NCBI GenBank assembly: GCA_905178155.1
Contig: CAJINV010000002.1
Coordinates: 4,543,694 to 4,607,693 of the forward strand
DNA length: 64,000 nt
From: Amoebophrya sp. A120
Taxonomy: Eukaryota > Protista > Dinoflagellata
Reading direction: 5' to 3'
Positions 1,939 to 63,690 of this stretch are shown here, piece by piece. Every line of letters begins with the position of its first letter. Position 1 is the first letter of the stretch. The translations under genes and the position numbers were made by a program. Below the pieces are notes generated by a model, which was not told the origin of the DNA, did no database searches, and saw nothing but the letters and a program-made list of their open reading frames with translations.

Positions 1939-2313
1939 ATGACCTGGAAGATAATATACCGGATCTGGGTGGGCGTCGGCATAATTGCCGTCGTCATCAC
2001 CTCGATTCGTCTCGGCGCCTTTGCGACGTACCGGAATCATCTACAAGAAGACGATGGAAAGATGAAAGCTGCTACTAGTACTAGAGCTGCTACTTCTACT
2101 AGTCCCGAGGACAATGGGGACGACATCAGCACAAAAGCGACGAGTCAGCCTGAACCTGCTGCTGCTGCTGCTGCACAGCAGGAAATAACTTTTATTCAAG
2201 AGCCCCAAGAACCTCCGAAGGACAACGTGAAACATGAACAACAAGAGGAACAAGCAGCGAAGGAAAAAAATGTTCTTCAAAAGGCAAGAGGCCTGTTGCT
2301 TCATTATCATCAC
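1939..2313 (+). CDS. Probable first coding exon, encoding a signal peptide/signal anchor
   Basis: ATG at 1939 in an A-rich context (caaaaATG); MTWKIIYRIWVGVGIIAVVITSIRLGAFA is basic then hydrophobic; joins in frame to 2471 across the element at 2314-2465. Confidence 0.75.
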
Positions 2314-5300
2314 TATGCAATACAAATTTCCCGAAGATCAAGATGTTGATGTACAAGATGCATCACAAATTTCGTGTAAAACTTGTCATGCTAAACTAGC
2401 AAAGAAGAAAAGTTTTGCCATGTAGAGACCGCATTTGTACGTGTACGGGAAATTTACTGTGGATAATCACGATCATGAACATGATGCTGATAAGCCCCAC
2501 CGACCTACCGTTACTGACCGGATGGCAGAGGTCGAGGCCCGATGGGGGCAGAAACATCAACATGGCCGAGATGATCTCGCAAATAAAATCGGGGAAGATC
2601 CTGATGATGATGCTGGCGCAACTGGTGATGAAGATGACGATACCGATTCGCAGGAAGTACCGACCACAAGCAGAGGACATGTAGAGCACCTTCACATAGA
2701 TGAAGAGGGTGACGGGGTCGTAGACGTTTCGCTGATATCCTGTGCAAAAGTATCTGATACTCGTATTGCAGTCATGCGTTGCAAATCATTTTCTTTTTCT
2801 TAAGGTGCAAAGGCATTACAAATTTCATTTCTCATGCTGAGGAAATTTGTATATGCATTTATACATTCAAACACGATACTTTTGCAAAAATCCATAGCTA
2901 ACTAGGCAGCAGCTGCGCAACTTGCTAGCTGGAAAGGAAAGAAATGCAGAGGAAGATGATGAAGAAGATCATGCTTCTCATGACCCACGTCGTTATTTGC
3001 ATTTGCGCGATGGCGATAAAAAACAAACAAAGCGGGACAAGAGTCTCCGGGAGTTTATAAGCCGGGAGGATCTTATTTCAGCAGTATCGGACGAAGAAGT
3101 GAAAAACGAAGAGCAAAAAAGAAAAACGACTAGACAAACTCAGGTTGAAAATAAAGATAAAGAACCTCCACAAGAAGTAGCAGGAGAAATAAATCAACTT
3201 CTAGTACAACCAGTCGAAACAACAACATCCTCAGCTGAAGGTGCGACTTCCTCGGTAGGAGGTCTTGACAGCGAAGAGGAAGAAATTCTCGCTCCAGACG
3301 GCAGAGGGACTGAAGTCCTCGGGGTCATTCCAGCGGGGGAAGAAGTAGAGGACCAACTGCTAGCAGATGAGCAGTTTGCCGCTGCGTCCGTAGTTCCAGT
3401 TCCCGTGCAGGGGCCAGGGGAACAAATGAGTACGCAGGCTTCTCCTGCGATTCCTGTCACTGATGTGAAGAACGACCTAGATACAGCAGCAGGCCCGATA
3501 TTTTCATCAACGCCACCTAGTAGCAGAAGTACAACTACTGCGAGTAATGATAACATCGTCCACGACGTTGAGGACCCGGCGGTTGCCGGAGGCGACGTAC
3601 TAGCGCAGCAAAATATAGAACAAGAACACGCGCCGCCATCATCATCTTCACAGGAAGAAGCTTCTTCTGCAGCTGCGACGACATCGGGTCGTATTGCAAA
3701 AACATCAATAAATACCGATAGCACTAGCACACTTGATGAAAAAGAAAATCCGGAGCAGCAGGTCCAAATAAAGCATGAGAACAACGACCTCCGCGGCGAA
3801 GCGGTAGAAGGAGTAGCAACGATAGTGGCCCATGAAGATGATGTCGCACCAGCAGAACAGCCGGCGCAAGAACTAGTACCTGAACCAGCAGCAAAAGCCT
3901 CGATCCCGGGGTCCTCCCTCTCGTCCGCTGGCACCACACGGATCCAGGCGGAGAAAGCGCAGCTATTGATGCAGAGACGACAAGCGGAACAGGTGCAGCA
4001 CCAGCAGAAGCGAGAAATAACCGAGAAACGCGAGATGAAGACGAGCTCTAGAAGTCTTGCTTCCAGTGCGACATCTCCAGGTGAAGACGGGAAAATGACG
4101 GAGCAGAATCAATTTGACGAGCAGATGGAACGGGATATGAAAAGCGGGAACGCCGCGACGTTCGGCAACGCGCAAACTTACGACGACCCAACCACGGAGG
4201 AGATCGAAGCGCTAGTGGACGACTACCAATTGAAAAAAGAATTCGACCAGATGTTATGCAATGTAAATTTCCCGTACATGTACAAAATGCATGACAAATT
4301 TCGCTGACTTGCAGTGTCCAACTTGTCATGCTAGACTAGGATTGAAGGCAAGTTTTGTCATGCAGAGACTCCATGTGTACGTGTACGGGAAATTTACTGT
4401 GGATAGATGTACGAAAAGTGCTACGACCCGCAGTGTATGCATTGCAAAAGTATCGTACTCGTTTGAATGCAAATCTTCCATGACAAATCTCGTTCTCAAG
4501 GGAAACCAGCATGACAAACTTGATTTCTCATGCTGAGGAAATTTGTAATGCAATTTACTATTAGAAGAAGTGCGATACTTTTGCAGTTCATACAGTGCAC
4601 TCAGCTGGTGTTCAAAATTATGTGCGGCACGAGGGTGGTCTGCGTGCCAGATGCCAGCACAACTTTCCTCACGCAAAAGCTCGAGGCCGATCGGGCGCGA
4701 TTCAAAGCGAACAGCCTGCTCAAGCCTGGCGCCGGTGGGCCGGGGATAATTATGTCACCGGAAGAGGATTACCAAAAAATGCAAACATGTCCGGGTCTGG
4801 AACAACACCCAAACTTGTGATGCTTCGTCTGGATCATGCTAAAAAAACCTGTATTGCATGACCAGCAAGAGGATTCAAATTTGGCTACGCGGTGGAAAGG
4901 GCATTTATCATGCTGGATGCGCATAGATAAAAAGCGCTCAAAAAATCGGTGATGCTATGGCATACATCACAGACATCATGGACCATGGAAAGTGTGCATG
5001 ACAAACTTGTGCTCTTCCAGATGACTCAGACATTTTTGCATCTGATAAGGATCAGGAATTCAAGAACACCACGCCAGCGGGTCCTAGTTCGTCGTCGTCC
5101 GGAAACGTAAATCCCTTCGCTTTCAACCGCCAGTTTCATCCTAGACCAGAGGACGAGAACCCGCTGGATGTCGCTTTGCTGGATTCACAAACGTATCCTG
5201 TGCAAAAGTATCTGATACTCGTATTGCAGTGATGCATTACAAATCTTTTTGTGAAAGAAAATCAGCATTACAAATTTTATTTCTCATGCTGAGGAAATTT

Positions 5301-8300
5301 GTAATGCATTTATACGAGTACGATACTTGTTCTGCAGCTGCATAAAACGCCTTTTTTCGCCGTGGAGCAGAAAGAAGCGGAACTTCACGACCACGGGCAG
5401 CAAGGAGCTACTTCTTACGCAATGCAAAAGCATCGCAATAGAAGAAATCGCATCACAAATTTTGTCAACATTAAAAAAATAGCAGTGAATTTGTAATGGT
5501 GAATATGGCCACACAGAGGTAGATCTGTTATGCACGATTGCGTCGAGTGGTACTGGTACTCGTACGAGTGCCATGATGCTTTTGCTGTGCATACTTCTGG
5601 TGGAGCAGCCGCGCGCCCGCTCCCGATGGACACCACCATGGAAAAGTTGGCCACCCTCGCGGCACATTGCGAGGCGGACGAACTTTGCACGGCTTTCATC
5701 TCTTTCGACGATGACACGCTGCGGACGCGGGAAGTACCCCCCGCGGAGGTGGCAGAAAAGGAGGAAAAGGAACTCAGCAAAAGAATCGACGAACTGTACA
5801 ACTCCGCATTTAACACAGCAATATCAAATGCAAATATGTCTGGGCCTGGAAACTTGAGTTGCTGATTCTTGCACTGCAGACTGGTCGGTTGTACGGTATA
5901 ACAGCATGACAAGTTATCCTCGCCCCATTGCGGGCTCATTCGTGTTTAGCATGACAAGCTGACTCCATCCAGCACGACAAAAATAAGAATGGTCAATCGT
6001 ATTTATGCATCACAGAGACAGATCTTGTTGTCCCTGAGCTTGAGGTCTCGCAGTACAAATCTAGACCCAAATGACGCATTTGCATTTGATAAGGAAATGT
6101 AGTTGACAACGGTGAGGGCGAGCTGCATTCCTCTGCTTCTACGACTGGTGGAGGGGTGTTGAGCGACATCAAAGATAAACACTCTCCTCAGCCCTTGGAC
6201 TTGCATCTGGCGGAGGATTATCAACTGTAAAAATGTCTGGGTCTGGAAGAGTGTAAACTTGTCATGCAGGTTTTTTATGACCCATGAGGTCTGTGATGCG
6301 GAACCTAGCACGACAGACTCTGTGAGGTCTCTGCCATGCCTATCCTGCATGAGTAGAAACTCCCTCCCAACTCGGTCGAAAGTGGACAGCTTTTGGCACT
6401 CATGCAACACAGATTTTTTCATGATTCGGATTTACCATGACAAGTTGCAATCTTCCAGACCCAGACATATTTGCAATCCATAAGGATTCGATCAAGTTCG
6501 GGGACTTTTTCGATGTCTACGAAGACGAGGAGATATTGGAACACATCCGAAATACTGCGGCACGGAAGCAATTAGCTGTGTCAGATTTTAGGACAATGTC
6601 AAACAGTTTGACTGATGAAGTAACGCAAAGAGGAACGTATCAACGGGCCCCGGGGACCATGGTATGAACTACTGCAAAAGTATCCGATACTCGTATAAAT
6701 GCATTACGAATTTTCTCAGCATGAGAAATGTAATTTGTAATGCGGATTTATTTTAGGAAAAAAAATTGTAATGCATGATTGCAATACGAGTGTGATACTT
6801 TTGCACAGGATACATCGACATGGACGAGTATATATCAACTGTAAAAATGTCTGGGTCTGGGAGAATCCAGCTTGTCATGCTGATTTTGGATTCTAAAAAA
6901 ATCTGTACTGCATGAGCAGCAATAAAGAGAGCCCAAGCTTTGCTACACGGAAAGAGCATTTGCCATGCGGTATAGGCATCAGGAAGCCCTCACAAAATCT
7001 GTGATGCATGGGCACGCATCACAGACATCAGGAGTCATGCAACATGTGCATGACGAACCTGGCAATCTTCCAGACCCAGACATTTTTACATTTGATAGTA
7101 TATCAGGATGAAAAATTATCCCCCCTCTCATATCAAAACGAAGTTTCTGATGCTGGCTCTGCGTTGTACACAAATGAGATTTGTCTTGCTGGCAAGGCTG
7201 CAGCCAGGCCCATATCAAGCCTGCAACACAGAGACGATTTGTGGTCACAAATGAGCAACGCAAATTTTCGAAAACGTACCTTGTCAATACGGGCGGGGGG
7301 GGAATAAATATCCTCGCGATAGAGTACGTGACGAATACAATCGCGAAGGAACATATCGCAGGAAAAAAATGTTTCACTGTAAACTTGTAATGCGCAGAGA
7401 TGAAGGCACCCCATCCCCAGAAGGATTTGTCTTGCTACACATGCAAGACAATGGATTTTTTTAGCTGTCTTTTCCCTTAGGAACCTAGCATCACAAAAAA
7501 TTTTCTCTGTCATGTTGAGCAAACCTGTTCTGCAAAACTTGCAAATCGTTTACAAAATCCTTACAGTGAAACACTTTTTTCTTGCGATAGAAAACGAAAT
7601 ACTCGGGGAGGACGCTGACTACAGAGAAGGTGATGAAAGTAAACGTGAGCCGGGTCGTACATATCCAAGAAAGAAACGTTGTTAGTGTAAATTTGTGATG
7701 CGCAACGTGCAAGATGATTGCGTCTGTCATGCTTGGCATGCATCGTAGGGTCCATTAAAGGGCGTTTTCGCGTACTATCTGCGCATGACAGGTTTTTGCT
7801 GTCATGCCAGACAAATTTGTAATGCTGTTCCTCCAAAAAAGTTACACCTACAATGTTTTTTTCTTAGATAGTACAACTGCCAGGAGTACTAGACGCGACG
7901 TCGACGCTGTTGCGCCGCCCAGCGAGGATGAGGATGACCTTGACGACCTCGACGATTTTATCGCAAGAAAAAACTGTTTCACTGTGAACTTGTGATGCAG
8001 AAAATGGATCGCAGAAGTGTGTGTCATCTACACATGCAAGACAGTGGATTTCTAGCTGTGTCTTCCCCGCCTAGGAACCCCGTATGACAGATTTTCAGTG
8101 TCATGCGGAACAAACTTGTGATGCAGATTTTGCAAAATCACCACAGTGAAGCAGTTTTTTCGTGGGATAGATTTGGACGAGGAAAAAGAGTTTGAGGAGG
8201 ATTTTCTTTTGTTCGAGCGGGCGCGCAACGCAGTGGGTCTCCCCATTGGCTGTCCGTTGGACTCGGGCGCGCTCATCATTGCCTCTATGCCCACCATATC

Positions 8301-11300
8301 CTGTGCAAAAGTATCGTACTCGTATTGCAATCATGCATTACAAATCTTTTTCTCAAGGTCACTCAGCATTACAAAATTCATTTCCCATGCTGAGGAAATT
8401 TGTAATGCATTTCTACGAGTACGATACTTTTACAGTTGATACACCAAGGAGAGTCAGTTTGGCAACACCGCCGGAGCACTCGATATCGATGTGGCCGCGG
8501 CGCAGCTGAGAGCAGAGAGGAACAAAAATATTGACCACAAAGGCAAGGAAGTACAACAGACTGCGCAGCAGGTGGAGCCCGATGGTAGTGCAACAGGAGC
8601 CGAAGGAGAAGATGTTCTTGCTGCAACTACAGCTGCAGCTCCAGGCACTAGCGACAGCGATCAAGACACTGTAGCTGCCCCAGCAATTACCACCTCGGAA
8701 GATGTTGATAAAGAAAAAACATCAGGTGGCTCTTTTCAACAAGAACAAGCGAAAAATCCGTACCAGGGCACGGATGAGCTCCATGCGCTGGGGCCCGAAT
8801 ATCAGCTAGGTTTTGGGAGGTTCAGCTACAGCAAATTTCTGGACCCGTATGCAAAGCAAATGTATCGTACTCCTCGTGGTATTGCAATACAGATTAGCTC
8901 AGCATGACAAATGGAATTTCTCATGCGGATTTAGCTCCAAAAAGAAATCTGTCTTGCATGACTGCGATAATTAGTACGAGTGCGATACTTTTGCAAAGGA
9001 TAACCCGGGGTGGAAGACAAAAAACAAATTGTGTGACAAAGAGGAGCTCCCGTTGCTGCGTGCCCCGCTGAAAACCACAGTGACGGTCGACAGTGTTGTC
9101 TTCGAGAAAACTGCCATGGAGGAGGAGGAAAGGGAGCTAAAGCGGTTCAGCAAAGAAAATGAAAGGGACAAGACGACTCATTCTACATTCACGGAAGTCC
9201 TCCTTGATGAAGTCAAGACAACCAATGCAGCAGCTGCTGCTGCTCACACTGCTTTTCTGGCGGAAGACCCGGGGACTCTGGGTCAAAGAACTACTGGCGC
9301 AAAAACTTCCTCCACTGTCAGCGTGGACGAAGCCGGTGCAGCAAGCCTGGTCGAGATTGAAGACGAGGAGGACGCAGAGTCGATATAGCGTCGTAAAAGT
9401 TGTATTTGACTAAGACCGTAAAAAAATTTTTGCGCGCATTTTTTCGCGGCGCCTATCTAGTAAACCTGTGCACGCAGACAAAAGGTCAATCCCAGTGCCG
9501 TTTATTTTGGCCCGCCTATGCGAAGCGCTTCTCAATAGCTAAATATGGACTGCTGCGGAGGTGAACGATTGCGGATCTGCCTCGGAGCGCCCTTAAAGCC
9601 CCGAGCTGCTTCAGCAGGTCCTCACGCAGGTCAGCGGCTAGGCAATGGGTCTCACTTTGTGCAGGTCGGTCGGAGTCGAGGGCGCAAATGGAACTGCCCG
9701 CGGCTGCGTTTCCAGTTGGTTCTAATGCCGTGCAGCTGTGCGCGCGTGTACCGGCACGCACGCGCGCTTTTTGCCTTTGTGGTTTTTTCTTGAAAAAGCG
9801 AGAAAGCCGACAGCCTCTCGGACGGGGTTCCCGGAGGGGCTCTGGGACCCCTTTTGGGGAGGGGTAGTACCATCGTGATTCAAAGAAAAAAAGATGGGCT
9901 TTTTGCTAGGGTTCCGGGCACCCCTCCGCCCCCCCCTTTTTGTTAGGGTTCCGGAAAGGCCTTCGCGACTAACATATGTGCGCGGAACTCGCTAGAGACA
10001 ACATCGCCAGGGCCTGCGTAGACATCTCTTGGGGCGTTTGCAGCTTCGCATCTTGATCCAGGCCATAGCTGCAAACAGCTGCAGTGGGCGAGCAATCCGG
10101 AAAAAGGAGCGAAGCGTTGTGAGTGCCCGGCGCTTTCTCTGTGAAAGCATCAGCCGCGAAACAATCCTCAGCGCCCCGCCCTCCTCCATGTCATTCTCCG
10201 CATAGCGGGCAGAGAATTGCTTCTGATAAGCTAGCTAAAACAAACGGCGCTCAAGTCAGTCTCTCACTCGCGTGCACGGGTTTAGTAGCAACACGCCGCG
10301 AAAAAATGCGCGCAGAAAATTTTTTACGGCTTTAGCCAAGTACAACTTTTACGACGCTATAAAGCCTGGTCGAGATTGAAGACGAGGAGGACGCAGAGTC
10401 GGCTTTTGATGTAGGCCCTAAAAAATCCATCTCTACGCCCATCTTTTCAAAATTTGCTCTATCGGTTTGCCGCCATTTCGTTGCATTCTCATACATAAAG
10501 CCTCTCGAGCAGCTCGACCGCAGATCCTGGCTGGCGATATTGCCTGACAGATTTTCCGGGTCTTGTTTTTCTTTTTGCAGCTTGGTGGAGGAGTGTGGTA
10601 GGAGTTGTGAGGCCAACTTGTCATGCACATCTCCGCGACATGCAGAAACAAGAACAAAACCGGGAGAATTTTACTGGGTGCGCGCCAAGTCCTGAACCGC
10701 TAGGGGTTTGGGAAGCTGCGCAGAAGATGCGGTGGGCGCTGTTTCCGAATCAGGCCCAAGCCAGGCCGGGGCTGATAAGAGGGGGGGCGCAGCCTTTCGC
10801 TTGGCTGCGCCTTGTGGAGGGTAAATTCGCCGGGGGCATTTTCCGCGTTTGTCGCTATTGCCGGGCGCCTTGCCTTACCTGCGCAAGCAGAGGCGCGCTC
10901 AGGGTCCATGGCCTCATATGATTGGGAGGCTCGTTTGGGTGGCTTTTCTCTTTGGGGTCTTTGGCTTGCGTTTCTGCCCCGGGCCTCGGGGCAGAAATAG
11001 AACAGCCCGGCTTGGCGCGTTTGCAAAGGCGGACGCGCAGCCGCCATCGAAGAGGCGCTACGCGATAATCGGCGAGGGCGCCACGCAATCAACTGGCCAA
11101 AATTTGAAAAGATGGGCGAAAAGGTGGATATTTTAGGGCCTTCATTTGAGATTGAAGATGAGGAGGACGCAGAGTCGGCTTTTGATGTTGATCTCGATGC
11201 TGGTCTTGAAGACATCGCTGAGCAGAAGGAAGAAGGGCCGGAAATACTGAATGAACCACCCGAGCATTCTTCGCCCCCCATGCGTGTATCCCCGACTTCA

Positions 11301-14300
11301 TCCCCATCAAGGGTTCCACCTTCTGCAACACGACGACAGTACACGGTTCCAAAGCGACCCTCGAAGTTTTTCCAGAAGGAGCTTTTGCGGCAACAAATGG
11401 AACAGGGAAGGATGAAAAGTTCTTCTTTTTCTCAACAGGGGAAGGAATTCCCCAATTCATCTGAAGAGGTGGTAGACCACGACTTGCATGATCAGGGAGC
11501 AGCAGTAGAGTCTGCTGCCAAGAATGCCGGCGCGCAACAAGCGGCAAGTACTATCCCGACAGCGAGCAGATTCGCGTTTGCCCGTGCCCAAGATGGTAGT
11601 AGTACGCCAGGGCAGCACCTCCACGACGGCAAAAATGATCCAGCTGAAGAGGATGCTGATGAGGAGGGCACAACCCCGCCGGTTCAAAAGGAAAATAACC
11701 CAACCCCGCCCACCGCCGCGCAAGTTGTAAAAGAACCTCCGAACTACAATAACAAAGTAGGACCTGATTCCGGAGGTGATAAAGATAAAGAAGAGACTGT
11801 CGCGCGACGATGTGGGATTCTCAATTGTTACATTGTCAGCTGTTACATGAATTTGTGATGGTACAAGAGTGAAACAGGGAGAGGCCGGATCTTGCAACTC
11901 TTGCATTACAAATTCGGCACAGATTCCCATGCTGTTTAGCCCTTCCAAAATTTGTAATGCGAAGTAGCTCCACCGTTTGCGTTTGGACGCTGATGCTCAT
12001 TTTGCATGGCAAATCATGTAACAGTTGAGAGTGTAACATTTGAGAACGCCATAGACGAGCCGTGCGCGTTATCGAAGCGGTGTCAACGCCTCGGCGAATC
12101 CTCACGGCCGAGAGCAGCAGCTTCATGGACATAAACCAAGGCATATCACAGGCAAAAGTGTATAGCGTCAATGGAATTTGTGTTGCAGTAATGCATCAAA
12201 AAACGTGCCCAAATTTGTCATGCATACCATGCATACAGATACAACAAGGCAAAATTTGTCATGCATGTTTGCAATCTAATATGAGATCCGCCACCGTTAG
12301 CACTTTTTCCTTTGATAAGGCACCAACCCCTTTGCAGAGGCGATGAGCCCGAACGTCGCCGCGTTTCACCAACCCACACCCGAACTGCACTCGAACGCCG
12401 CTAGTAGAAGTGCGGCCCTGGGGAGTACGGACTCGTTGACCAACCCGCGGGGGGGTGGGAAAGGCCGGTTTGGCACCGACGGCCTGTCCGATGACCTGGA
12501 GGAAACCAACGAGAGCATGCTACAACAGCGGTACAAAACTACCCGGCCCCTGTATCAAAAGGAAAAATCCCGCCTCCCCATATCAAAACGAAGCTTCTGA
12601 TGCTGGATTTCCGTACACCAATCAGATCTTCCTTGCAGTAGAGGACTGTAGACATACGCCAAGCCTGAATGGAGAGGTTTTGGCAGAGGCAACTAGCATG
12701 ACAAACGTCTAGGCTGTAAGCCCAACAGCATGTTGACAAACCGCCTCCATAATGCGGCGGACTCTCTGGGTTCGCCTTCTTGCAACACAGAGAGTATTTG
12801 TGGTCACAAATCTGCATCACAAATTTTCAGACGAGTGCGTTTTCAGTATGGGGAGGGGGGATTTTTCCTCACAATACCCTGTACGTGAAAAAGCAAGCTT
12901 ACGAGACCGCGAAGCAAACCTATGGATGTGTCAGGATCGAAATTGTCAAAAATGAAACAGTTTGTCATGCATAAAATGCAGCGCAGAGGCAGAGATTGTC
13001 TCTATTGCAGAGGACGCAAGAGAGGCAGACTGTAAGCCTGTGGAGGGGTAGAAGTAGAGCTGCTCAAGTAGCATGACAAAAGGCGTCGTCCTTACCCAAA
13101 CAGCATGACAAATTGGATTGAGATAATTCTACCCAAATTTGTCATGCGCCACAAAATGCCAGCCCGTAGTAGCACAGTCTGTTTTTGTCATGCGCCACCT
13201 GGAAACTGGGACTCAACTGGCCTCCATTTGATTATGCATGGCAAATTATTTCAGCTTTGTCGATTTCGACCCTGACAGTTCCATAAAACCAAAAAAGTGC
13301 TACTCGGGTATCTAATCTCGAAAAAATACATGTCCACGCCAAATCCACTGACAAACAAAATCCACGGCGCAGCGTTGCAGCCAGCAGATATTCGCAAATT
13401 GCTCGGTGTTACAACTGAAGAAGAAGCGGCACTACAAGAACCCGCTATGGACGAAGAAAAGTTGGTCGCGGCGGAACAAGCGATAGAGGAAGAAAAGTTG
13501 CAATTGGACGAAACGGAAGAGAAAATGAAGTTTCTAAGCGCGTCCGCCCGACGTCGAATTATTGAAAAAGAAGCGGCACTCGCCAACCAATTGGAGGAGG
13601 ACCAGGACCGGCTTGCTGCGATGGGAGTTGTGCGAGACAAAGATGGAAACTGGAGGAAAACGCGAAGAAGAATATGCATTGCAAAAGTATCGTACTCGTA
13701 CTGATTGCGTTTATGCATTACAAATCTCTTTATTAAGGCAAATCCGCATTACCAATTCAATTTGTAGTGCTAAGTGAATTTGTAATGCAATTTATACTAG
13801 TAAGTAAGTACGATACGTTTGCACTTCATAAAGCAAAAAAAAGCGCAAAAAGCAAACTTTGCAGGAAGTGTTCCGCGACCGCAAACCGACTTCCCAGTTT
13901 GCATTTCGGGCACAGGATGCACTGCAAATGTGTCTGGGTCTGGTAACTTGTAATGCTGCGATGGGAATAGTGAATGCTCTGTAATGCACAGCCCAGCATA
14001 AGAAATACTTATCTGCGCTACTTTGTGTTGCGTTTTTCGCATGACGAGCTGCGTTTTTGCATGACAGGCGAAAGGGTCTCTTGTTGGACACGCATCGCAA
14101 ACTTTTTGATCATGCCAGACAAGCGTGACAAATCTCGCAATCTTCCCGACCCGGACACTTTTGCATTTGATAGGCAGCAGTCCAACGCAAAATTTGGCGC
14201 GCGCATGATCGAAGAGCTCCGCGAACAGGAAACGGCCGCACTGCTCGATATGGCGTTCTCAAACGTATACATTCTCAGCTGTTACATGATTTTTTGCCAT

Positions 14301-56300: not shown

Positions 56301-59300
56301 ACCCCAAGCCGGCCCCGCGGTGCCTCTTTTCCCGCATGAAACCACGGGGCCGCGCGGGCCCTCATGCAGTCAATGGTCCAAATTCCCGCGGCGTTCGGTG
56401 TTTCGCAAGCATACACCTTCGCAGACACGGCCGATTTTTGGCGTTTGCCGTTTTTGCGCCGGGCCCCGAGGGTCCGGTCGCTAGCAATGAGGGGCCAGCG
56501 CGCGCCTTCGTTGTGTAGCCGGCGCGCTTTTTGTAGCAGGCTGCGTGGCTTTTCGTTTTGTTTTTTCGTTTCTTTTCCTGCTGGGGCCAAAAGAAAGGGC
56601 GCGGAACGAGGGGCGCCGGTGCGCTGGCGGTGTTTCTGGGGCAGCGCCGGTAGCGATGCACCAACCAAGCGGGGGGGGGGAGGGCGCCTCTGCAAAAAGC
56701 GCGACCCGCTGGCGGCTCGATGCCGGCCATGCGCATGCCGGTGGAGAGAGTCTGACGGGCGCACGCATACCATTTGGTGGCCCACCTTGCCCGGGCGACC
56801 GTCCGACGAGGTGTGAAGGAGGCGGGGGCCCCGGCGATTCGTGGGGCAGGGCCACTGCCATGGCAGGCCCAGCGGTGCATTCGCTGTGGCGCACCTTCCT
56901 CAGACCTTCGATCGCGCGCAACCGCGGAGCCGGGGCCGAATGGTCTGAAAACCGGAAGCGGGGGCCCCGGGCCCGATGTTTTCTACATGTTTGGCCGGGC
57001 ATCTTCCGAGCCCACCGTCGTGAGCCCTGTCGGAGGGACCGGGCCGCGGCGGCATGACAGTCTGACAGGCCGTGGGAGATCGGCTTGCACCCACCCCGCC
57101 GGCCTCAACTCCCAGCGCGCGCGCGGACGTTCATTCTTGCCACAATGGGGGCGGTTGGCTTTCTGGGCGGCCCCAGATAGAACCGCCCGCCCGCGTCGAG
57201 CAGCGGCCGGCCACAGCCTGTGGCGATTGAAAAGACACCGCCCGGCGCCCGGGCCTGTTGTATTCAGCGCCCGCGCGGGCCCGCTGCCTGGTGGTCGTCA
57301 GATTGGGAGGCACACACCGGCGCCTTGTTCCTCTCGTTGCGCCAGCCCACATATGTCGTCCCCCAAGCCGCGCCCGCTTCCCTGTTTCTCCCTGCGCGGC
57401 ACTGCCCCAATGCCTCGCGCGGAGCTGCCCGCCGGGCCGGCGTGAGCCGGGTTTGCGCGATTTTTCCGCTCGGGCAAGTGGGATTCGGAACCGCGCCGGG
57501 CGGACCCGAGAAAGAGCGGCGCGAGAATGATTCTCGCAGGGCCTAGCTTTCGACGTGAAACGCCTCTCCATTCTCGCGGAAGCACTACGTTTGCGCGAGA
57601 ATGGCAGAGAATTTCATGCAGATGCGAAGCCCGCCACGAGAATCATTCTCGCGCCGCAAGTTATGGGAGCCTGCCCGCAGCAACCCGGAAGCACACGGAA
57701 AATGCCCGGGGCCTGGGGGAAAACTGCTGGCGCTTGCCAAAAATGCAGCGCGCCGACGGCAATACCGGGGCCGGCCAGAAGGCCAGAGGGAGGGCGAGAG
57801 GCTGCAGGCGCGTGGCGCCCCTCGGGCAAATTTCTGCCCAAGATCTTTCCGGCCGGGGGGCCCCAACGCTTTGCCGAAGTTCTTTTTTCTGAAAATTGTT
57901 CGGCGGGCGCCCGCTCGCAGGATGGGGCCCAGGCGCAGCGGGGCCGGGGGCAACGGCGAAAGCGGGAGGCGAGGAGGCGGGGCTGGCGGATATTGGCAAG
58001 GCCGATGCAGTGGCAGCGCAGGCACCGCCTGCCCACACGCGCGCGCCACAAGCCGTGCCGGCCGGCGGGCCCTGGACATTGTGGCTGGGCTCAGGCGGGC
58101 GCGGCCAGCCTGTTGGCCAGCGGGCAGGAGCCGAGCTATTGCATGATGTGGCCACCAATGCATCTAGTGCCGGCGGCACCGGGGCCCGGGGCCTTCGCCC
58201 TCCGTTGCATGCGCCTGCCCTTCGGTCCACAGAGAAGACAGAACCCGCCGGCCGCGCACACACAGCTTTGGGCGCGCGGCGGCAATTGTCCCGCTCCGTG
58301 CAAGCCCCACCAAGCCAAGGGCTTCGCGCAATGCGCCCAAGTCTGCCGGGGCCGGGGCAACGAGCAGGGAGCGAAAATAAAGGCAGGCGGCGCGCAAAAG
58401 CGGGCCCCGCCCGGTGATTCTATTGCAGAAAAGAAACAGGCGGGGCGCGCCCCGTATATTGCGTTGCCGGGCCCGCCTGGTGTCTGTTAGTCTTCCGCCC
58501 CGATTTGCGGGGGCGGTTGCTGGCCTTCTTTGTGTTGGCCCGCCCTGGTTTCCCGCGTTTTTTTCGCACGACATCCCCGGGTCAAATGTGCACGAGGGGG
58601 CGTTGGCCCTCAAAATAAAAGCGCCGGGCGCGCCGCGGCCTTTTGGGTAGCCTAGGTAGCGAAGAGAATGAACGGCCGACGGCCTCCCATCAATCAGAAC
58701 CCCGGCCCGGGCCCGGAGTAGATGCAGCCGGCGCGCAAAATAGAGAGGCCACTCTCATGGGCGTGCGTGCTTGCGAAACAAAGACAACCGCCACAATTTT
58801 GCGCGCGGCCCCGGCGTGTCTCGCGGGCGCCCCTTGGGGCGGGGCCGGCTTGGGGTGCGTGGTCCGCGGAAAAGTTGTGCTTCCTCCCTAAGCCACAACT
58901 TTTCCCGGAGTCCGGTCGTGTTTGAGGGTAAAAAGAAGCTGCACAACGCCCAAGGGGGGCAGAAAAAGACAGCCACAGGTCGTGCGTAACCTAATGCAGC
59001 ATGGTATGGCTGCGAGGAAAATTCGCACGCAGCGATACCATGCAGCATAACCTCACGCCCGATGCTATCGGGAGTGCGAATATTGCTGCTTGGGGATAGC
59101 ATCGCGCAAAAGGTTACGCCCGACGGTGTGCAGCGGCTGTGGCAGCCGCTTGTGGCGAACGGGGGGATTTGTAATGCGGAGAAGAGCCCGGGTTGCGGAG
59201 AACCCGAGGGTCCGGGCTTTCCCCTTTCCCCATTTTACCCACAACCCGAACCCCGAGCTCTGGGGAGCCCCGCACTCCGCATTTGTAATGCGGAGAGCCC

Positions 59301-62300
59301 GACCTTTCCGCCCATTGGATTTGTAATGCGAAGAGCCCGACCTTTGAAAGGTCGGGCTCTCCGCATTACAAATGCAATGGCTATGGGCACCTTTCCGCAC
59401 TTGTAATGCGGAAAGGTCACCTTTCCGCATTTGTAATGCGGAGAACCGGAGGTGCGGCCTTTCACTTTCTCCAACCGGAGGAAGCGGAGTTTGCGAATTT
59501 GTGGCGCGGCTTTTCTCCAGCGGGGAGAAAAGCTGCATCTGCATCCGGCTGGTTTTCCAATTTTGTAATGCAGTTTTTCTCCACCCGACCGCTCGAGCGG
59601 AGAAAAACCGCACGCAAAACAAGTAGCTTTGCGCGAAAAAACGGGCGCAAGCCCTATGAGAGCGCAGCTTCTACCCCGTCCGGAGCGGGAAAAGTTGTAA
59701 GCGGGTGGAGCCCCATTTGCTTCCTCATTCTCGTAGGTCGCTAGTTTCATTCTCGTGGCACTATATGCTCTTTCTGGGGTCAAGTTGTATTTTGTCCGTT
59801 CATAATATGAGATCCTGGATGGCAGTGCGCGGCACACCGAGGGCGGGGATTGGCTGAGTGATCGGAAATTGTATCACATCCGCAAGCGGTGGCTGCGCAG
59901 TTTGTACACCAGTCAGCAGTGCTTGGAAAACCTCCGGCAGCGAGCGATGCGCATTCACTACGAGAAGTACCACCGGCGCACCCGTCGTGTGGTAATTTGG
60001 TCCGAGCAGCTGAAGCGGCTGCGGTTGAAGTTGAAGCGGTGGGCGCTGCAGTGCAAACAAGACATTCAAAAGGAGCTCACGCCCTGGGAACGGTGGAAAC
60101 TGGAAAATCTGCCGGCGCGGCTGCAAAACTCCTGGCTTTTTAGCGGAGGCAAGCCGCACCCGATGATCGGGCAGAGCGGCGACAACCTGAACGGTATCAC
60201 GCAGGAAGAGACCATGCTGGCGTCGTTAGTTTTCGAGGATGAGGAAGAGTTGAGTATCGGCGTCAGTGGCCAAGCTGTCGGTGCGCATGGGTCTTCGAGT
60301 TCGTTTGCGCAGGCGGGCGAGGCGAGAATGAACTATGAACTGCAAAACAAAGTAACGTACTAGAAGTATAAATTGCATTACAAATTGACTCAGCATTACA
60401 CATTAAATTTGTAATGCGGATTTGCCTTAGCAAAAAGATTTGTAATGCATAAACGCAATTAGTACGAGTACGATACTTTTGCACAGGATATGAACAACGG
60501 AACAACTACGTCCTTGAACGATGAACAGATTTCATCTCCGGATCCGGAAGATGTTCTCGAACAGCCCAAGAAAAAAACACCTCGCCCGGAGCAGGTCGCT
60601 GAGGAGGAAGAAATATCAAATGCAAATATGTCTGGGTCTGGAAACTTGTGATGCTAAAAGGTGGATGCTGGAAACAGTTCCGCATGCAATTTAGCATGAC
60701 AACTTTCCAGAACGCTTTCTCATAAGCAATCCGCATGAGAAACTGCGTGTTTGCATGTACAAAAGAGGCTGCGACTTTTGTTGGTTATGCAATACAGATT
60801 TCCTAGGTATGGAAAGCTAGCATCACAAGTTCCAACCTTCCAGACCCAGACACATTTGCAATCCATAAGAAAATGAAAATACCAGCAGCGAAGACGAGCT
60901 GGAGGGCGACTTATGGAAACGTCAGGATTGAAATCGTCAAAGTTGAAATAGATTGTGATGCATAAAATGCAACCCACAAAGTGCCTGTCTTGCAGAATAG
61001 GCAAGGGAGGCAGATTGTCAGCCTGTTCAGAAGTAGAAATAGAGCTGCCAAGGTAGCATGACAAAAAACGTCTTCCTTACCCAAACAGCATGACAAACTG
61101 GATTTGAGTTCTACCCAAATTTGTCATGCGCCACTTGAAAACTAGGCACCCACTGGTATCCGTTTTATACATCACAAATTATTTGAACTTTGTCGATTTC
61201 GATCCTGACACTACCATACGACTTAGAAGACGACGGTGGGGAAACAGCGGACGCACGCAGCTGGGGCACGCAAATGTGGGAGGTATCAACTGCAAATATC
61301 GATCTGGGTCTGGACGAAAAGTGGAACGTGTATTGCTTGGCTTGCATGCCAGTGAAATCTGTATTGCATGACTAGCAAATAAAATAAGTGCGAGGACTAC
61401 TTCTTTTGTCGTGCAACGACGCAGTCTCTGATGCGCGGTACGCATGAGATAAAAGCGGTTCAAACATTTGTCATGCTTGGCTGCACGCTAGAGGATGCTC
61501 AACCATTGGCATTGCGATCCAGCATCACAAGTTTCCAGAGGACCCAGATGACATATTTGCAATGCACAAGAGGACTACGTGAGGAACCCCGTCCAGCACC
61601 GTGTGCAGCAAGCGGTGGGGGAGGTGAAGCGGTGGGTTATCAAAAGAAAATAAAATCCCCCCGTTCCATACCAAAACGAAGTCTCTGATGAAGGACTTGT
61701 GTACAACTACACCAATCAGATTTGTATTGCAGTGAAGGATTGCAGGCATATGGTAAGCCTGAGTACTAGACGAGGTCTTGACGTAGGCACCCAGCACGGC
61801 AAATGTCTACGCTGTTCTTGGCCCAGTAGCATCACAAACCGCCCGCATACTTACTTAATGCGGCGGAGCCAGCAGCGGCGTCGCCTTCTAGCAGGACAGA
61901 GACGATTTGTGGCCACTAATCAGCATTGCAAATTTTCTGAGGCGTGCCGTTCTGATATGAAAAGGGAGGACTTTCTCTTACGATATGGGTTCCCACCTGG
62001 CTATCCGGTGATCCGCTGCAAGCACTATCCTGTGCAAAAGTATCGTACTCGTATTGCAATCATGCATTAAAAAAAGTAGTGAAATAATTTAAAGATCTTT
62101 TTTCATGAAGCCCGTCACCAAAAGATAATAGAAAAATAGATTTTTTGCCTTTTTGTTAAGGTACATCAGCATTACAAATTTTATTTCTCATGGTGAGGAA
62201 ATTTGTAATGCATTTATACGAGTGCGATACTTATTTAGCAATCCATAGTCGCAGAAAGGCGACAACGCGAATACCCGGGCGCGCAAGAAGAGGAAGCGGA

Positions 62301-63690
62301 AGCTGGCTCGGAAGCTGCAGCAAGAAAAGCTGCGGCGGGAGCAGGCGTATCCACAGTAAAGTTCCCGTACACGTACAAATGCAGTCTCTGCAAGGCAAAA
62401 CTTGCCTTTAATCCTAGTCCAGCATGACAAGTTGGACTCTGCAAGGTAGCGAAATTTGTCATGCATTTTGTACATGTACAGGAGATTTGTCATGTGCATA
62501 AGGCGAGCAAGCAGCGCATCAAGTCGGGCGACTTGGTTTTGCTGGGCAGGACGTCGTATCACATGCAAATATGGATCTGTGTCTGGAATTCGATTGAACT
62601 TGTAATGCCAGGCCTACATTCCCCCAAAGATCTGTATTGCATGACTGACAAATAAACGACGCCACCTTTTGTTACAGACAACCGCAGGAGCTTCCCATGC
62701 GGACGGCGCATGAGAAAGCGTGGTCCGCAAAACTTGTCATGCGTGGCAGCTGCATGGGGAAGTCGAAGTATTTCAGTCATGCACATAATTTCAGCATCAC
62801 AAGTTTATTCCAGACCAAGATCGATATTTGCAGTTGATACGTCGGACCAGCAGACGCACGAAATGCAGGAGCGGCGGCTAAAGAAACACGACGAGGACCA
62901 CATGTACCGGGCGCACAAGGTCAGCTATTGTGAGGAAAAATCCCCCCTCCCCATATCGAACAGGAAATTTGTGATGCCGGATTTGCGTACACAAGTCAGT
63001 TTGTACTGCTAGAAGGGCAAGAGACGCAGTTGTGGCCTTGTTTGCAGGCAATTTGTCATGCTGTCTCCCGCTTCCAGTTGCCTCGTGTCATGCAGAAGAT
63101 GCAAGGCCTTCCCACGCCAGCCAGAACTACAGTCCGCATCTTTTGCCTTCTAGCATGACGACATGACTTGCGGCCGCAAATCAGCGTCACAAATTTCCAC
63201 TTTGAGTTTGGGGTGGGGGGATTTTTCATTTTGATATCAGCGAAGCCCTCCTGACAGAGGCGGACGAGCAAATGTACAAGCAGCTGTTCGGCCACCACTT
63301 GATGGAGGAGGCGGAAGAAGATAGTGCAGACGAGTCCGCCGAGCTGAACGACGCGGTTGCGATGCAGGCGGGCGGGGCAACGGCAACGGCTGCGGCAACC
63401 GCCCAAAATACTGCGGGAAGATTAAAGCGCAAGGCCGAGATATCGTAAGAAAAAACTGTTCCACTGTAAGGATTTTGCAAGTTTTGCATTACAAGTTCAC
63501 TACACATTACAAAGGAAGCTTGCCATGCGAGTATCCTAAGGGAAAACACCACTAAAAATCACTTGTCTTGCATGTGTAGCAAGACAAACACTTCGGTGAT
63601 GCATTTTCTACATCACAAGTTCACAGTGAAACAGTTTTTTCTTGCGATACGAGAAGCTGCGCAAGCTCGTGGAGAAGCAGGTGGCCGAGT
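1939..63690 (+). CDS. Giant multi-exon gene (135 exons, about 18.25 kb CDS, at least 6,084 aa, 3'-incomplete); hypothetical secreted/membrane protein
   Basis: Manual splicing (element plus one direct-repeat copy removed) keeps one stop-free frame. Exons: 1939-2313,2471-2735,2902-4254,4411-4435,4598-4769,5053-5193,5350-5415,5599-5821,6097-6218,6488-6662,6818-6830,7327-7353,7595-7661,7876-7958,8175-8296,8447-8847,9008-9382,10402-10412,11189-11810,12059-12143,12323-12552,12882-12920,13291-13672,13836-13915,14178-14248,14520-14536,14794-14816,15039-15123,15340-15404,15700-15735,16003-16123,16424-16608,16765-16810,16961-16993,17325-17520,17697-17789,18604-18723,19041-19270,19531-19797,19959-20014,20169-20209,20512-20539,20784-20912,21226-21236,21549-21610,21786-21932,22103-22149,22487-22530,22742-22812,23083-23134,24122-24273,24549-24611,24894-25336,25621-25672,25933-25981,26127-26175,26398-26428,26551-26635,26899-27026,27196-27294,27566-27625,27885-27961,28121-28388,28669-28737,28895-28920,29234-29277,29426-29841,30007-30045,30304-30443,30752-31021,31194-31316,31637-31700,31971-32012,32234-32797,36952-36998,37266-37650,37921-37962,38209-38244,38522-38566,38724-38852,39008-39046,39335-39445,39603-39908,40173-40207,40454-40485,40759-40787,41059-41103,41339-41456,41756-41841,42118-42172,42431-42505,42796-42865,43192-43437,43766-43983,44253-44286,44570-44644,44870-45442,45597-45667,45926-45972,46230-46322,46548-46599,46841-47401,47669-47721,48042-48191,48351-48423,48753-48850,49004-49023,49184-49205,49472-49502,49768-49810,50586-50800,51129-51174,51489-51576,51743-51875,52055-52264,52599-52649,52805-53093,53365-53433,53705-53764,53991-54088,54245-54308,54576-54899,55152-55203,55325-55351,59813-60333,60496-60613,60873-60911,61224-61283,61574-61637,61991-62025,62253-62347,62506-62556,62845-62925,63242-63440,63655-63690. 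The exact junction within each repeat is ambiguous. No domain recognised by eye. Confidence 0.88.
2902..4254 (+). CDS. Largest exon; acidic, low-complexity, probably disordered segment
   Basis: Matches ORF 2922-4307 up to the element starting at 4255; rich in E/Q/S/T/A. Confidence 0.9.
4255..4405. mobile_element. Introner/MITE family C (TATGCAATGTAAATTTCCCGTAC...GTACGGGAAATTTACTGTGGATA), about 150 bp, 8 copies
   Basis: DR GATGT here. Forward copies: 2314-2465,4255-4405,16609-16759,28738-28889,48192-48345. Reverse copies: 39446-39597,51876-52049,62348-62500. Confidence 0.95.
6219..6482. mobile_element. Introner/MITE family A (TIR TATnnnnTGYAAAWATGTCTGGGTCTGG), about 250-285 bp, 33 copies; representative shown
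   Basis: TIR plus 5-bp DR (AGGAT here). Copies: 4770-5047,5822-6091,6219-6482,6833-7097,13916-14172,14537-14788,15736-15997,19271-19525,22813-23077,24274-24543,24612-24888,27295-27560,27626-27879,28389-28663,30046-30298,31701-31965,36999-37260,37651-37915,38245-38516,39909-40167,40486-40753,40788-41053,41842-42112,43984-44247,47402-47663,49206-49466,49503-49762,53094-53359,53434-53699,54309-54570,60614-60867,61284-61568,62557-62839. Confidence 0.95.
7959..8169. mobile_element. Introner/MITE group E (TATCGCAAGAAAAAA-type ends, several subfamilies), about 115-250 bp, 15 copies
   Basis: DR GATTT here. Copies: 7354-7589,7662-7870,7959-8169,12144-12317,14817-15033,22531-22736,26176-26392,26429-26545,27027-27190,44645-44864,45973-46224,53765-53985,55204-55319,63441-63649,63691-(runs off the window). 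Confidence 0.9.
8297..8441. mobile_element. Introner/MITE family B (TIR TATnnnnTGCAAAAGTATCGYACTCGT), about 140-180 bp, 30 copies; representative shown
   Basis: DR CACCA here. Copies: 2736-2896,4436-4592,5194-5344,5416-5593,6663-6812,8297-8441,8848-9002,13673-13830,16811-16955,19798-19953,20015-20163,21611-21780,21933-22097,23135-24116(nested insert),25982-26121,27962-28115,29278-29420,29842-30001,31022-31188,32798-36946(nested insert),38567-38718,38853-39002,45443-45591,48851-48998,49024-49178,51577-51737,52650-52799,54089-54239,60334-60490,62026-62247. Confidence 0.95.
9384..10361. mobile_element. Long-direct-repeat TIR element L1 (intronic)
   Basis: Imperfect TIR of about 70-95 bp (TATAGCGTCGTAAAAGTTGTA.../...TACAACTTTTACGACGCTATA); perfect 40-bp DR at 9343-9382 and 10362-10401. 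Confidence 0.92.
10413..11147. mobile_element. Long-direct-repeat TIR element L2 (intronic)
   Basis: TIR of about 45 bp (AGGCCCTAAAA.ATCCA...CGCCCATCTTTTCAAA, inverted copy ending at 11141); 41-bp DR at 10372-10412 and 11148-11188 with 1 mismatch. Confidence 0.9.
11189..11810 (+). CDS. Internal exon, low complexity
   Basis: Frame of ORF 11112-11858; bounded by the long-DR element ending at 11147 and the introner at 11811. Confidence 0.85.
12553..12876. mobile_element. Introner/MITE family D (TATnnnnAGGAAAAATCCCCC...), mostly 310-350 bp, 12 copies
   Basis: DR CCCTG here. Copies: 6831-7321(host of a nested family-A copy),12553-12876,16994-17319,18724-19035,22150-22481,42866-43186,43438-43760,48424-48747,51175-51483(diverged),52265-52593,61638-61985,62926-63236. 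Confidence 0.92.
17521..17696 (+). other. Canonical GT-AG spliceosomal intron (176 nt)
   Basis: AG|GTACTA...TTCCTTTTTTTCATCCAAATTACACAG|G; removal bypasses the TGA at 17534 and restores the frame (IGR YHQW). Confidence 0.85.
17790..18565. mobile_element. Long-direct-repeat TIR element L3 (intronic)
   Basis: 38-bp DR at 17752-17789 and 18566-18603 (3 mismatches, last 27 bp perfect); degenerate TIR (AGCTTGG..CCATTAG..GGTGAATTTCC..TGATTTT and its inverse). Confidence 0.85.
20540..20778. mobile_element. Introner/MITE family F (TATGGSRTTCTCAA...TTGAGAAYSCCATA), about 235-265 bp, 7 copies
   Basis: DR CGAAC here. Copies: 11811-12053,14249-14514,20540-20778,26636-26890,37963-38203,45668-45920,46600-46835. 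Confidence 0.92.
23224..24046. mobile_element. 823-bp foldback MITE nested in a family-B introner
   Basis: TAT...ATA ends, TSD CCTTA, TIR of about 65 bp (AAAAGTACTCAACTCTATTTTTACTCATAGGGCAAAA) plus further internal inverted blocks (CTGCAGGCTTAGCTA; GACTTGCTGGGAG). Confidence 0.92.
24894..25336 (+). CDS. Internal exon, acidic
   Basis: Frame of ORF 24938-25348; bounded by elements with DRs CTTCC and GCGAC. Confidence 0.85.
25337..25615. mobile_element. Introner/MITE family J (TATCCTGAGTAAAAACGTCCCCA...), about 280-315 bp, 10 copies
   Basis: DR GCGAC here. Copies: 15405-15694,16124-16418,20210-20506,20913-21220,25337-25615,31317-31631,39047-39329,41457-41750,42506-42790,44287-44564. Confidence 0.92.
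25673..25927. mobile_element. Introner/MITE family K (TATAACCCGCTCAG...TGAGCARGTTATA), about 255 bp, 2 copies
   Basis: DR GGGCA here; second copy at 42173-42425 (DR GAGCG/GAACG). Confidence 0.88.
28921..29228. mobile_element. Introner/MITE family G (TATGGAWGYGTCAGG...CCTGAC..CCATA), about 305-365 bp, 6 copies
   Basis: DR CGCTC here. Copies: 12921-13285,21237-21543,28921-29228,47722-48036(diverged),50801-51123,60912-61218. Confidence 0.92.
29426..29841 (+). CDS. Internal exon with a Cys-rich patch (WCEDECDPKPSCWTKCFDAVDDYCVHTLITHCC)
   Basis: Frame of ORF 29409-29867; bounded by family-B elements with DRs GGGCT and GCTCT. Confidence 0.85.
32013..32228. mobile_element. Introner/MITE family H (TATGAnAGTGCACAAC...GTTGTGCACTnTCATA), about 210-300 bp, 7 copies
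   Basis: DR GCAGG here. Copies: 15124-15334,30444-30746,32013-32228,40208-40448,41104-41333,46323-46542,54900-55146. Confidence 0.92.
32234..32797 (+). CDS. Internal exon (acidic, poly-Lys, then a Cys-containing segment)
   Basis: In frame with ORF 32500-32829; continues at 36952 after a 4.15-kb compound intron with DR CGCGG. Confidence 0.85.
33090..33418. repeat. Hairpin satellite, first block (about 3.5 units)
   Basis: Unit GGCCCCTAGGCCATGACGCGGGGACCGAGTCCCCGCGCTGGCCTAGGGCTTTCGCCCCTTGGCCGCACGGTGTCCGGGAAGCGC...AGCT. Confidence 0.9.
33419..34606. mobile_element. 1.19-kb GC-rich TIR element inserted in the satellite
   Basis: TIR TCRGTCGGAGGGCCC(C)GGGGC; 6-bp TSD ATGGCG (33413-33418 and 34607-34612) splits one satellite unit. 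Confidence 0.9.
34092..34252. repeat. Degenerate TTTAGCA(GG) short-repeat cluster
   Basis: More than ten TAGCA cores at roughly 12-13 bp spacing; the same word occurs near both ends of the host element (TGCTAAA at about 33460, TTTAGCA at about 34571). Confidence 0.8.
34607..36483. repeat. Hairpin satellite, main block (about 20 units, mostly 92-100 bp)
   Basis: Tandem units each containing nested palindromes (CCTAGGCCA...TGGCCTAGG and CGCGGGGA...TCCCCGCG); a roughly 660-bp, 7-unit higher-order duplication is visible. Confidence 0.95.
36526..36810. repeat. GGGGTRTGTY 10-22-bp minisatellite with inverted copies
   Basis: Repeated GGGGTGTGTC / GGGGTATGT at 36545-36701 and complementary ACACACCCCC / ACATACCCC at 36765-36809. 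Confidence 0.85.
37266..37650 (+). CDS. Internal exon ending in a hydrophobic, possibly transmembrane segment
   Basis: Ends ...MMYTILLSIMEELVFKFALSFVGAAVLL; frame of ORF 37215-37733. Confidence 0.85.
39603..39908 (+). CDS. Internal exon with a second hydrophobic segment
   Basis: Contains GVMMSIGLPVPILTGITWVSVLIAVSVVQNLLM; frame of ORF 39611-39961. Confidence 0.85.
44870..45442 (+). CDS. Internal exon, Lys/Arg-rich
   Basis: Frame of ORF 44858-45499, between two introners. Confidence 0.85.
46841..47401 (+). CDS. Internal exon
   Basis: Frame of ORF 46845-47615 up to the element at 47402 (DR GTGGA). Confidence 0.85.
49811..50555. mobile_element. Long-direct-repeat TIR element L4 (intronic)
   Basis: Perfect 30-bp DR at 49781-49810 and 50556-50585, weakly extendable to about 37 bp; TIR ACGCTT..TAAAAACTTCACT..TAAAAAAAAATTTTTTT and its inverse ending at about 50541. 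Confidence 0.9.
55352..59804. mobile_element. 4.45-kb long-TIR (foldback-type) DNA transposon acting as an intron; apparently non-autonomous
   Basis: TIRs at about 55352-56318 and 58839-59804, highly similar; TAT...ATA ends; 8-bp TSD ATATGAGA; GC-rich 2.5-kb core without a recognisable transposase. Confidence 0.93.
59813..60333 (+). CDS. Internal exon following the 4.45-kb long-TIR element
   Basis: ...QKTYE|ILDGSARH... joins 55325-55351 to the frame of ORF 59869-60363 once the element and one ATATGAGA are removed. Confidence 0.85.

Follow-up and report, generated by a model that had tools for sequence, protein, structure and literature searches.

Removal of more than 60% of introns without GT-AG in Amoebophrya has been a standing question since 2021. 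The introners of Amoebophrya sp. A120, as portrayed in the open text of Farhat et al. (2021; PMC7789003), are elements of about 250 nt with 3- to 5-nt direct repeats, terminal inverted repeats (TIRs) starting TAT, and non-GT-AG boundaries. Their end signature is given as TAT, seven looser bases, and AAA, and their removal mechanism is reported there as unresolved. Among the A120 entries compared from Gozashti et al. (2025; PMC12130899), families are mostly classed as "TIR DNA, unknown superfamily," with mixed splice dinucleotides. Outside Amoebophrya, the open accounts of Euglena nonconventional introns (PMC12501133; PMC11282704) give them a MITE-like origin, paired ends, and no GT-AG, with an experimentally shown geometry that combines a CAG/CTG motif with 3-nt and 5-6-nt spacers and an exon beginning with a purine (PMC12501133). 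Transposon introns of Fritillaria borealis (AG-AC/AG-AT) have TIRs and target site duplications, keep preferred terminal dinucleotides, and are described as removed by an adapted spliceosome (PMC11282704), and Micromonas and Aureococcus introners are described as MITEs turned into introns via target duplication that carry or co-opt canonical sites (PMC11282704; PMC7789003).

The locus described here lies in a window of 64,000 nt, the whole stretch of DNA analyzed. Compared with the A120 introners in the open text of PMC7789003, it shares the organism, TAT-start TIRs, an A run, repeated families, and non-GT-AG boundaries, and it differs in presenting the complete 134-intron set of one gene, which the annotation splits, at 7.3 introns per kb of coding sequence versus 1.42 genome-wide. 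Its elements carry duplications of exactly 5 bp, and a fixed register is a candidate for them, whereas in that paper the sites are termed variable (with respect to the hairpin, in the Fig. 3 legend). "Tens of introns in a single gene" are likewise noted for A120 introners in PMC12130899; splice geometry, 30- to 41-nt repeats, and nesting are absent from the 19 of 58 A120 rows compared from that source. As far as the open Euglena texts allow comparison, the locus shares the MITE-like origin, paired ends, lack of GT-AG, and a spacer-length rule with the 5' side shorter than the 3' side (PMC12501133). The lineages are unrelated, the Euglena geometry is experimental whereas we infer that of A120, and the Euglena signature N3-CDG ... 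CH'G-N5-6 / R does not describe the ends here (TAT ... ATA), so that the two are alike in geometry at most. Both termini appear free here, unlike those described for Fritillaria borealis, and only the insertion at 17521-17696 resembles the canonical-site introners of Micromonas and Aureococcus. The gene is a real, extreme member of the published introner class, and the phenomenon is already in print; what is added here is that the elements work in both orientations and that a candidate rule, removal of the element plus 5 nt, can be formulated.

Elements were chosen without regard to reading frame, on the evidence of inverted repeats at their termini and direct repeats in their flanks. An automated scan for such repeats at TA...TA ends gave 109 elements, and the others were added by eye. 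Excision of the 134 top-level insertions left 18,256 nt, and concatenating and translating the exons, the check proposed with the original prediction, gave 6,085 codons without an in-frame stop (Table 1). Exons had a median length of 71 nt (range, 11-1353 nt; n = 135), introns made up 70.4% of 1939-63690, and a further insertion inside three introns brought the total to about 137 events. The predicted figures (about 135 insertions, more than 6,000 codons, a summed exon length of 18,253 nt, and a locus about 70% transposon derived) were all essentially right.

Table 1. Features of the locus, in window positions; the numbered sets list elements without their duplicated target
Feature	Position	Strand	Detail
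Single reading frame	1939..63690	+	Amoebophrya sp. A120; at least 6,085 codons in 135 exons
A120 model P0001, 575 aa	54279..63710	+	12 of 14 junctions as reconstructed
A120 partial model P0002, 182 aa	50652..52184	+	182/182 identical; 4/4 junctions
129 MITE introns	2314..63649		TAT...ATA ends, 5-bp target duplication
GT-AG intron	17521..17696	+	only real-looking one; decayed TAT...ACA element 17525-17695
4,453-nt element	55352..59804		about 900-nt inverted ends 99% alike, TAT...ATA, 8-bp duplication
Inverted-repeat element	9383..10361		40-nt flanking direct repeat
Inverted-repeat element	10413..11147		41-nt flanking direct repeat
Weak-inverted-end element	17790..18565		38-nt flanking direct repeat
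Inverted-repeat element	49811..50555		30-nt flanking direct repeat
Nested pair	6831..7321		element 6833-7097 across 5' end of element 7101-7321
MITE with inner element	23135..24116		contains 823-nt TAT...ATA element 23224-24046 with own 5-bp duplication
Swollen 150-nt-family MITE	32798..36946		4,149 nt through GC-rich insert
Element with poor repeat	62026..62247		flanking repeat matches 2/5 bases only
Elements, set 1	2314-2465; 2736-2896; 4255-4405; 4436-4592; 4770-5047; 5194-5344; 5416-5593; 5822-6091; 6219-6482; 6663-6812		
Elements, set 2	6831-7321; 7354-7589; 7662-7870; 7959-8169; 8297-8441; 8848-9002; 9383-10361; 10413-11147; 11811-12053; 12144-12317		
Elements, set 3	12553-12876; 12921-13285; 13673-13830; 13916-14172; 14249-14514; 14537-14788; 14817-15033; 15124-15334; 15405-15694; 15736-15997		
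Elements, set 4	16124-16418; 16609-16759; 16811-16955; 16994-17319; 17525-17695; 17790-18565; 18724-19035; 19271-19525; 19798-19953; 20015-20163		
Elements, set 5	20210-20506; 20540-20778; 20913-21220; 21237-21543; 21611-21780; 21933-22097; 22150-22481; 22531-22736; 22813-23077; 23135-24116		
Elements, set 6	24274-24543; 24612-24888; 25337-25615; 25673-25927; 25982-26121; 26176-26392; 26429-26545; 26636-26890; 27027-27190; 27295-27560		
Elements, set 7	27626-27879; 27962-28115; 28389-28663; 28738-28889; 28921-29228; 29278-29420; 29842-30001; 30046-30298; 30444-30746; 31022-31188		
Elements, set 8	31317-31631; 31701-31965; 32013-32228; 32798-36946; 36999-37260; 37651-37915; 37963-38203; 38245-38516; 38567-38718; 38853-39002		
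Elements, set 9	39047-39329; 39446-39597; 39909-40167; 40208-40448; 40486-40753; 40788-41053; 41104-41333; 41457-41750; 41842-42112; 42173-42425		
Elements, set 10	42506-42790; 42866-43186; 43438-43760; 43984-44247; 44287-44564; 44645-44864; 45443-45591; 45668-45920; 45973-46224; 46323-46542		
Elements, set 11	46600-46835; 47402-47663; 47722-48036; 48192-48345; 48424-48747; 48851-48998; 49024-49178; 49206-49466; 49503-49762; 49811-50555		
Elements, set 12	50801-51123; 51175-51483; 51577-51737; 51876-52049; 52265-52593; 52650-52799; 53094-53359; 53434-53699; 53765-53985; 54089-54239		
Elements, set 13	54309-54570; 54900-55146; 55204-55319; 55352-59804; 60334-60490; 60614-60867; 60912-61218; 61284-61568; 61638-61985; 62026-62247		
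Elements, set 14	62348-62500; 62557-62839; 62926-63236; 63441-63649		

In the initial frame test, 131 of 132 exons were entered in open frame; under random phase, the probability of every exon being entered in this way is about 1e-30. The exception, 17325-18723, comprises the GT-AG intron 17521-17696 and the long-repeat element 17790-18565, two separate insertions that supersede a reading of this stretch as one 1,179-nt GT-AG intron (17521-18699). Shift and retention controls were computed on a 133-intron version of the gene. Moving all cuts by −5, −2, −1, +1, +2, or +5 produced 144 to 168 stops, of 264 tests in which one junction was moved by 1 or 2 nt, 262 ran into a stop (at a median of 26 codons downstream), and the remaining five frames contained 97 to 237 stops. 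Intron lengths modulo 3 were distributed 44/50/39 (n = 133), and in-frame retention was possible for only 3 of 133 introns. With all 134 junctions required to be exact, the gene provides a complete, unbiased intron set. Because the frame is intact among old insertions, the gene appears to be under selection, and the same frame suggests a continuous single transcript across all exons. An in-frame stop lies 13 codons 5' of the ATG, where an open frame at 1639-1899, in the same phase as the gene, terminates; this frame is either the end of an upstream gene or an upstream ORF. At the 3' end, another TAT element begins at 63691, with unrelated A-rich repeats after about 60 nt (63691-64000), and the gene may extend past the window or terminate at a stop within that element.

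In the encoded protein, blocks that look ordered alternate with low-complexity tracts. It may be membrane anchored, as suggested by hydrophobic segments at the N terminus (aa 2-31) and at aa 2508-2526, 3815-3834, and 4012-4041; a hydrophobic segment is flanked by His/Gly/Ala-rich and His/Lys-rich tracts (38209-41456). Pfam, protein, metagenome-contig, and Atlas comparisons revealed no family or orthologue. Pfam gave 0 hits at cut-off among 36 exons and the two database models, exon 59815-60333 had no relative in metagenome contigs, and none was found in 404 kb of a second assembly (JACKZZ01 contigs L001-L153). Exon 9008-9382 had no match among proteins of 220-2000 aa, and the sole match to exon 19533-19796, a tandem-repeat protein, was judged spurious. 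Atlas gave nothing usable for P0001 residues 140-300 and scored the Cys-rich exon 29427-29840 as P2RX7_C at 0.91 with low recognition, an assignment that was not accepted.

A 5-nt direct repeat flanks 129 of the 134 elements, and the other five have repeats of 8 or 30-41 nt. Target duplications of the 129 were perfect in 96 cases, with one mismatch in 27, two in 5, and three in 1, and they could not be extended, adjoining flank positions matching in only 18-30 of 128. The excision rule of the original prediction, element plus one direct-repeat copy, kept the frame at all 134 junctions, but it probably fails at the five elements with other repeat lengths. With TIRs, a fixed-length target duplication, short length (mostly 116-365 nt), and occurrence in either orientation, these elements are MITEs, and they fall into 15 multi-copy families plus singletons. 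Best within-family identity averages 81%, the elements being about 20% diverged from each other. Both orientations are present in 9/9 families having at least four copies, so a strand-symmetric signal is required. TAT starts 123 of 128 elements, and A occupies positions 11-13 in 99-113 of 128; these ends match the published A120 signature and the exons are 100% identical to A120 proteins CAD7933406.1 and CAD7933402.1, which bears out Amoebophrya, the organism named in the original prediction. Repeat mismatches are synonymous in 15/40 cases against an expected share of 0.26. Of the 80 open frames of at least 80 aa in six long inserts, 30 were scanned against Pfam and gave no transposase (0 hits; 49811-50555 excluded; short elements are too small).

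Element stems carry an A-run/T-run. Positions 1-3 pair across the two ends in 118-127 of 129 elements, positions 4-7 in 47-76, and positions 8-20 in 87-117. The duplex formed by an element's own ends averages −38 kcal/mol versus −20 for ends from different elements, and one element folded end to end gave z = −7.2 (0/200 shuffles). Cross pairing was stronger in 13 of 128 pairs of neighboring elements, a possible source of exon skipping. The same families were observed within long frames of the JACKZZ01 contigs, which belong to a metagenome collection; 118 of 133 elements had a full-length match there at 70-95%. A total of 344 elements were called in that assembly, 205 of them inside long frames after the same removal, and 13 of these 205 could be drawn as GT-AG.

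Element termini show no preference for G at +1 and none for AG at the end. Sliding the boundary within the repeat allows 6 of the 129 five-bp elements to be drawn as GT-AG (chance expectation, 4.8), and in-frame GT..AG pairs at most 3 nt from the ends numbered 26 versus 17-28 for control dinucleotides. GT(GC)-AG or AT-AC termini were found only at 17521-17696, where GT and AG both come from the duplicated target GGTAC. The claim of a single GT-AG intron holds for what looks real but not for what can be drawn. Damaged ends occur in 3 of the 6 GT-AG-drawable elements versus 15 of 123 others (p = 0.035), which is no more than suggestive of ends decaying when canonical sites are at hand, as in 17521-17696. 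For this gene, exact removal independent of orientation and of GT-AG is required, and it very probably takes place at the RNA level.

Several insertions depart from the common pattern. The four with 30- to 41-nt direct repeats are mutually unrelated, and three carry a short one-sided tail; where mapped, they are low copy (depth 60-300 versus 25-30 for unique DNA). They possibly represent a transposon type having long variable target duplications. One of them, 17790-18565, contains a near-perfect 39-nt palindrome at 18123-18161. No Pfam hit was obtained in 8 of the 44 open frames of 55352-59804. The stretch 33100-36500 is a GC-rich tandem array of 92- to 96-nt units (21 copies listed) that belongs to a nested insert lacking clear inverted ends. 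For the pair at 6831-7321, rebuilding the outer stem would need ordered removal.

The A120 gene models derive, according to the open text of PMC7789003, from assembled transcripts aligned with BLAT owing to noncanonical sites. Where these transcript-driven models overlap the locus, they reproduce 16 of 18 junctions spanned, which, with the frame tests, supports the predicted base-exact, GT-AG-independent removal. P0001 and P0002 cover only the 3' part (codons 5100-5281 and 5509 onward), and P0001 ends by reading 7 codons into the further element at 63691. A model search with two 5' exons (9008-9382 and 19533-19796) found none. The comparison shows that very long genes are fragmented in the A120 annotation. 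At 62026-62247, P0001 removes exactly the element plus 5 nt. At 55352-59804 it keeps 3 extra nt, equal to one extra codon, and at 62926-63236 it drops 30 additional nt, 15 per side, which fits no rule and reflects either alternative splicing or an artifact; one drawing of the latter junction ends in AG. Runs X5, X6, and X8 (RNA or probable RNA), mapped on 1900-21800, covered only element copies and no exons, and such matches carry no information on gene expression. RNA reads of X6 and X8 at 7064-7097, 13917, and 15784-15822 join element ends to other genes (59-68 reads per place), so element pieces are retained in some transcripts of that material.

Because perfect repeats hide the cut, exceptions were used to locate it. 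At 55352-59804, the extra codon of P0001 is reproduced by −1/+4 and by no other offset tried, which puts the first cut a single base ahead of the 5' TAT and the second four bases past the 3' ATA; this junction could be an alignment artifact, and the exact register rests largely on it. Of five mismatched repeats within the models, four were informative; in every one of these the base retained at position 1 or 2 comes from the left copy, three being compatible with registers 2-5 and one with 1-5. Register 0 creates a stop in the window, and two cases in contig L056 exclude registers 0 and 1 once each by a stop; a stop-informative case in contig L004 was dropped because its boundary had been miscalled. 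Codon usage of repeat mismatches gave no signal for register. Applied to all 134 insertions, −1/+4 yields 6,138 codons with no stop, and the translation matches P0001 over 495 residues and all of P0002; for the four long-repeat elements, the fit came only once stem ends had been chosen, each a 1-in-3 test. Removal seems to take the element plus 5 nt regardless of the repeat, as the annotation supports, and a fixed ruler cutting at −1/+4 is the probable register. Introns so cut begin NT, as do all 9 top A120 noncanonical motifs in Table S4 of Farhat et al. (PMC7789003), but placement inside perfect repeats is aligner dependent. The geometry N+TAT...ATA+NNNN was not found in searches of open-access text.

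The reading we prefer, with a probability of about 45%, is that end pairing and distance-placed cuts, probably made by a relaxed spliceosome, remove the 134 transposons from pre-mRNA. The inverted ends would pair in the pre-mRNA and define the intron, and a 5-nt ruler would place one cut a single base before the 5' TAT and the other four bases after the 3' ATA. Splicing of this transposon group would be scarless, since the two offsets, 1 and 4, add up to the 5-bp target duplication. Cut in this way, the intron would start N-U-A-U-(G/C), donor-like with a free first base when set beside the yeast-type donor consensus. The stem might replace U1 snRNA, and an A that hardly varies, at −7 relative to the 3' cut, might serve as the branch point, leaving AG unneeded. 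No branch consensus beyond A-U was found in the elements.

In the window, the 5' T varies in 1 of 129 elements and its partner A in 10 (p = 0.010), while A at −3 varies in none and its partner T in 2. Among 180 clean elements of the second assembly, the 5' T had 0 variants and its partner 4 (p = 0.125), and the T at position 3 varied in 6 versus 1 for A at −3. The asymmetry was not significant there with a strict detector (2 versus 2 of 155) or with a loose one (12 versus 17 of 205; p = 0.44). Speculatively, the asymmetry, which would not be expected from pairing alone, suits a +2 U of a donor site and a −7 A acting as branch point. A120 is reported to have U2, U4, U5, and U6 plus 83 of 89 spliceosome proteins, with U1 snRNA undetected (PMC7789003, open text). 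Since strain A25 is reported to have a U1-70K homologue (PMC12787238, open text), U1 may only be divergent. With U2, U4, U5, and U6 present and U1 undetected, the relaxed spliceosome was ranked first and the Euglena-like route second. Spliceosomal chemistry as such is slightly favored. A second A120 splicing code, consisting of N+TAT...ATA+NNNN, a paired stem, free terminal bases, function in either orientation, and the −7 A as branch point, is put forward tentatively.

It is also possible, if unlikely, that the same end pairing and ruler direct a nonspliceosomal cut-and-ligate reaction, as proposed for Euglena, with circles released instead of lariats. Such a reaction would suit the unconstrained terminal dinucleotides, and the Euglena precedent, in its open accounts, includes a paired motif with fixed, genetically tested spacers of 3 and 5-6 nt (PMC12501133) and introns that leave as circles (PMC11282704). 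A120, however, is described as retaining a near-complete spliceosome and 35% GT-AG introns, and the end asymmetry, though weakly replicated, fits strand-specific donor and branch roles. Guidance by homology, with one repeat copy swapped for the other, is the reading to which the wording of the original prediction points, and it is improbable. It accommodates the frame maintained at every junction by element-plus-repeat removal and the predominance of perfect repeats, but 33 of 129 repeats are imperfect, the one matching at 2/5 bases is still removed exactly, and the 8-bp-repeat element leaves 3 nt in P0001. Harder still to credit is an ordinary spliceosome using cryptic GT/AG sites, or a misjoined ordinary gene cluster or dead locus: the database does split the locus into small models, with none at the two 5' exons, and an in-frame GT..AG lies at most 12 nt from the ends at 59 of 134 junctions, but control dinucleotides reach 60-77, the database models follow the repeat junctions, and the 6,085 codons contain no stop despite elements about 20% diverged. 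DNA-level excision in some life stage, like the excision of internal eliminated sequences in ciliates, has very little in its favor beyond a transposon anatomy with scarless geometry and the fact that rare variants can be hidden in contigs. It is opposed by run X1, whose contigs contain, without a mismatch, both element-exon junctions and a whole 979-nt element at a depth (24-39) resembling that of exon-only DNA; by inheritance, as the DNA loss would be passed on in a parasite with a single nucleus; and by the published junctions, which, as described, derive from RNA-seq.

This gene is of value as a test bed, with a specific, checkable splicing rule for existing RNA data and natural variants in the 8-bp repeat, the 30- to 41-nt repeats, the 33 mismatched repeats, the nested pair, and the decayed GT-AG copy. 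If splicing is scarless, the spread of this transposon group would be explained. If the second code is true, it would be accurate enough to join 135 exons into an 18-kb message, and any 5-bp-duplicating TAT transposon would be a scarless intron in A120.
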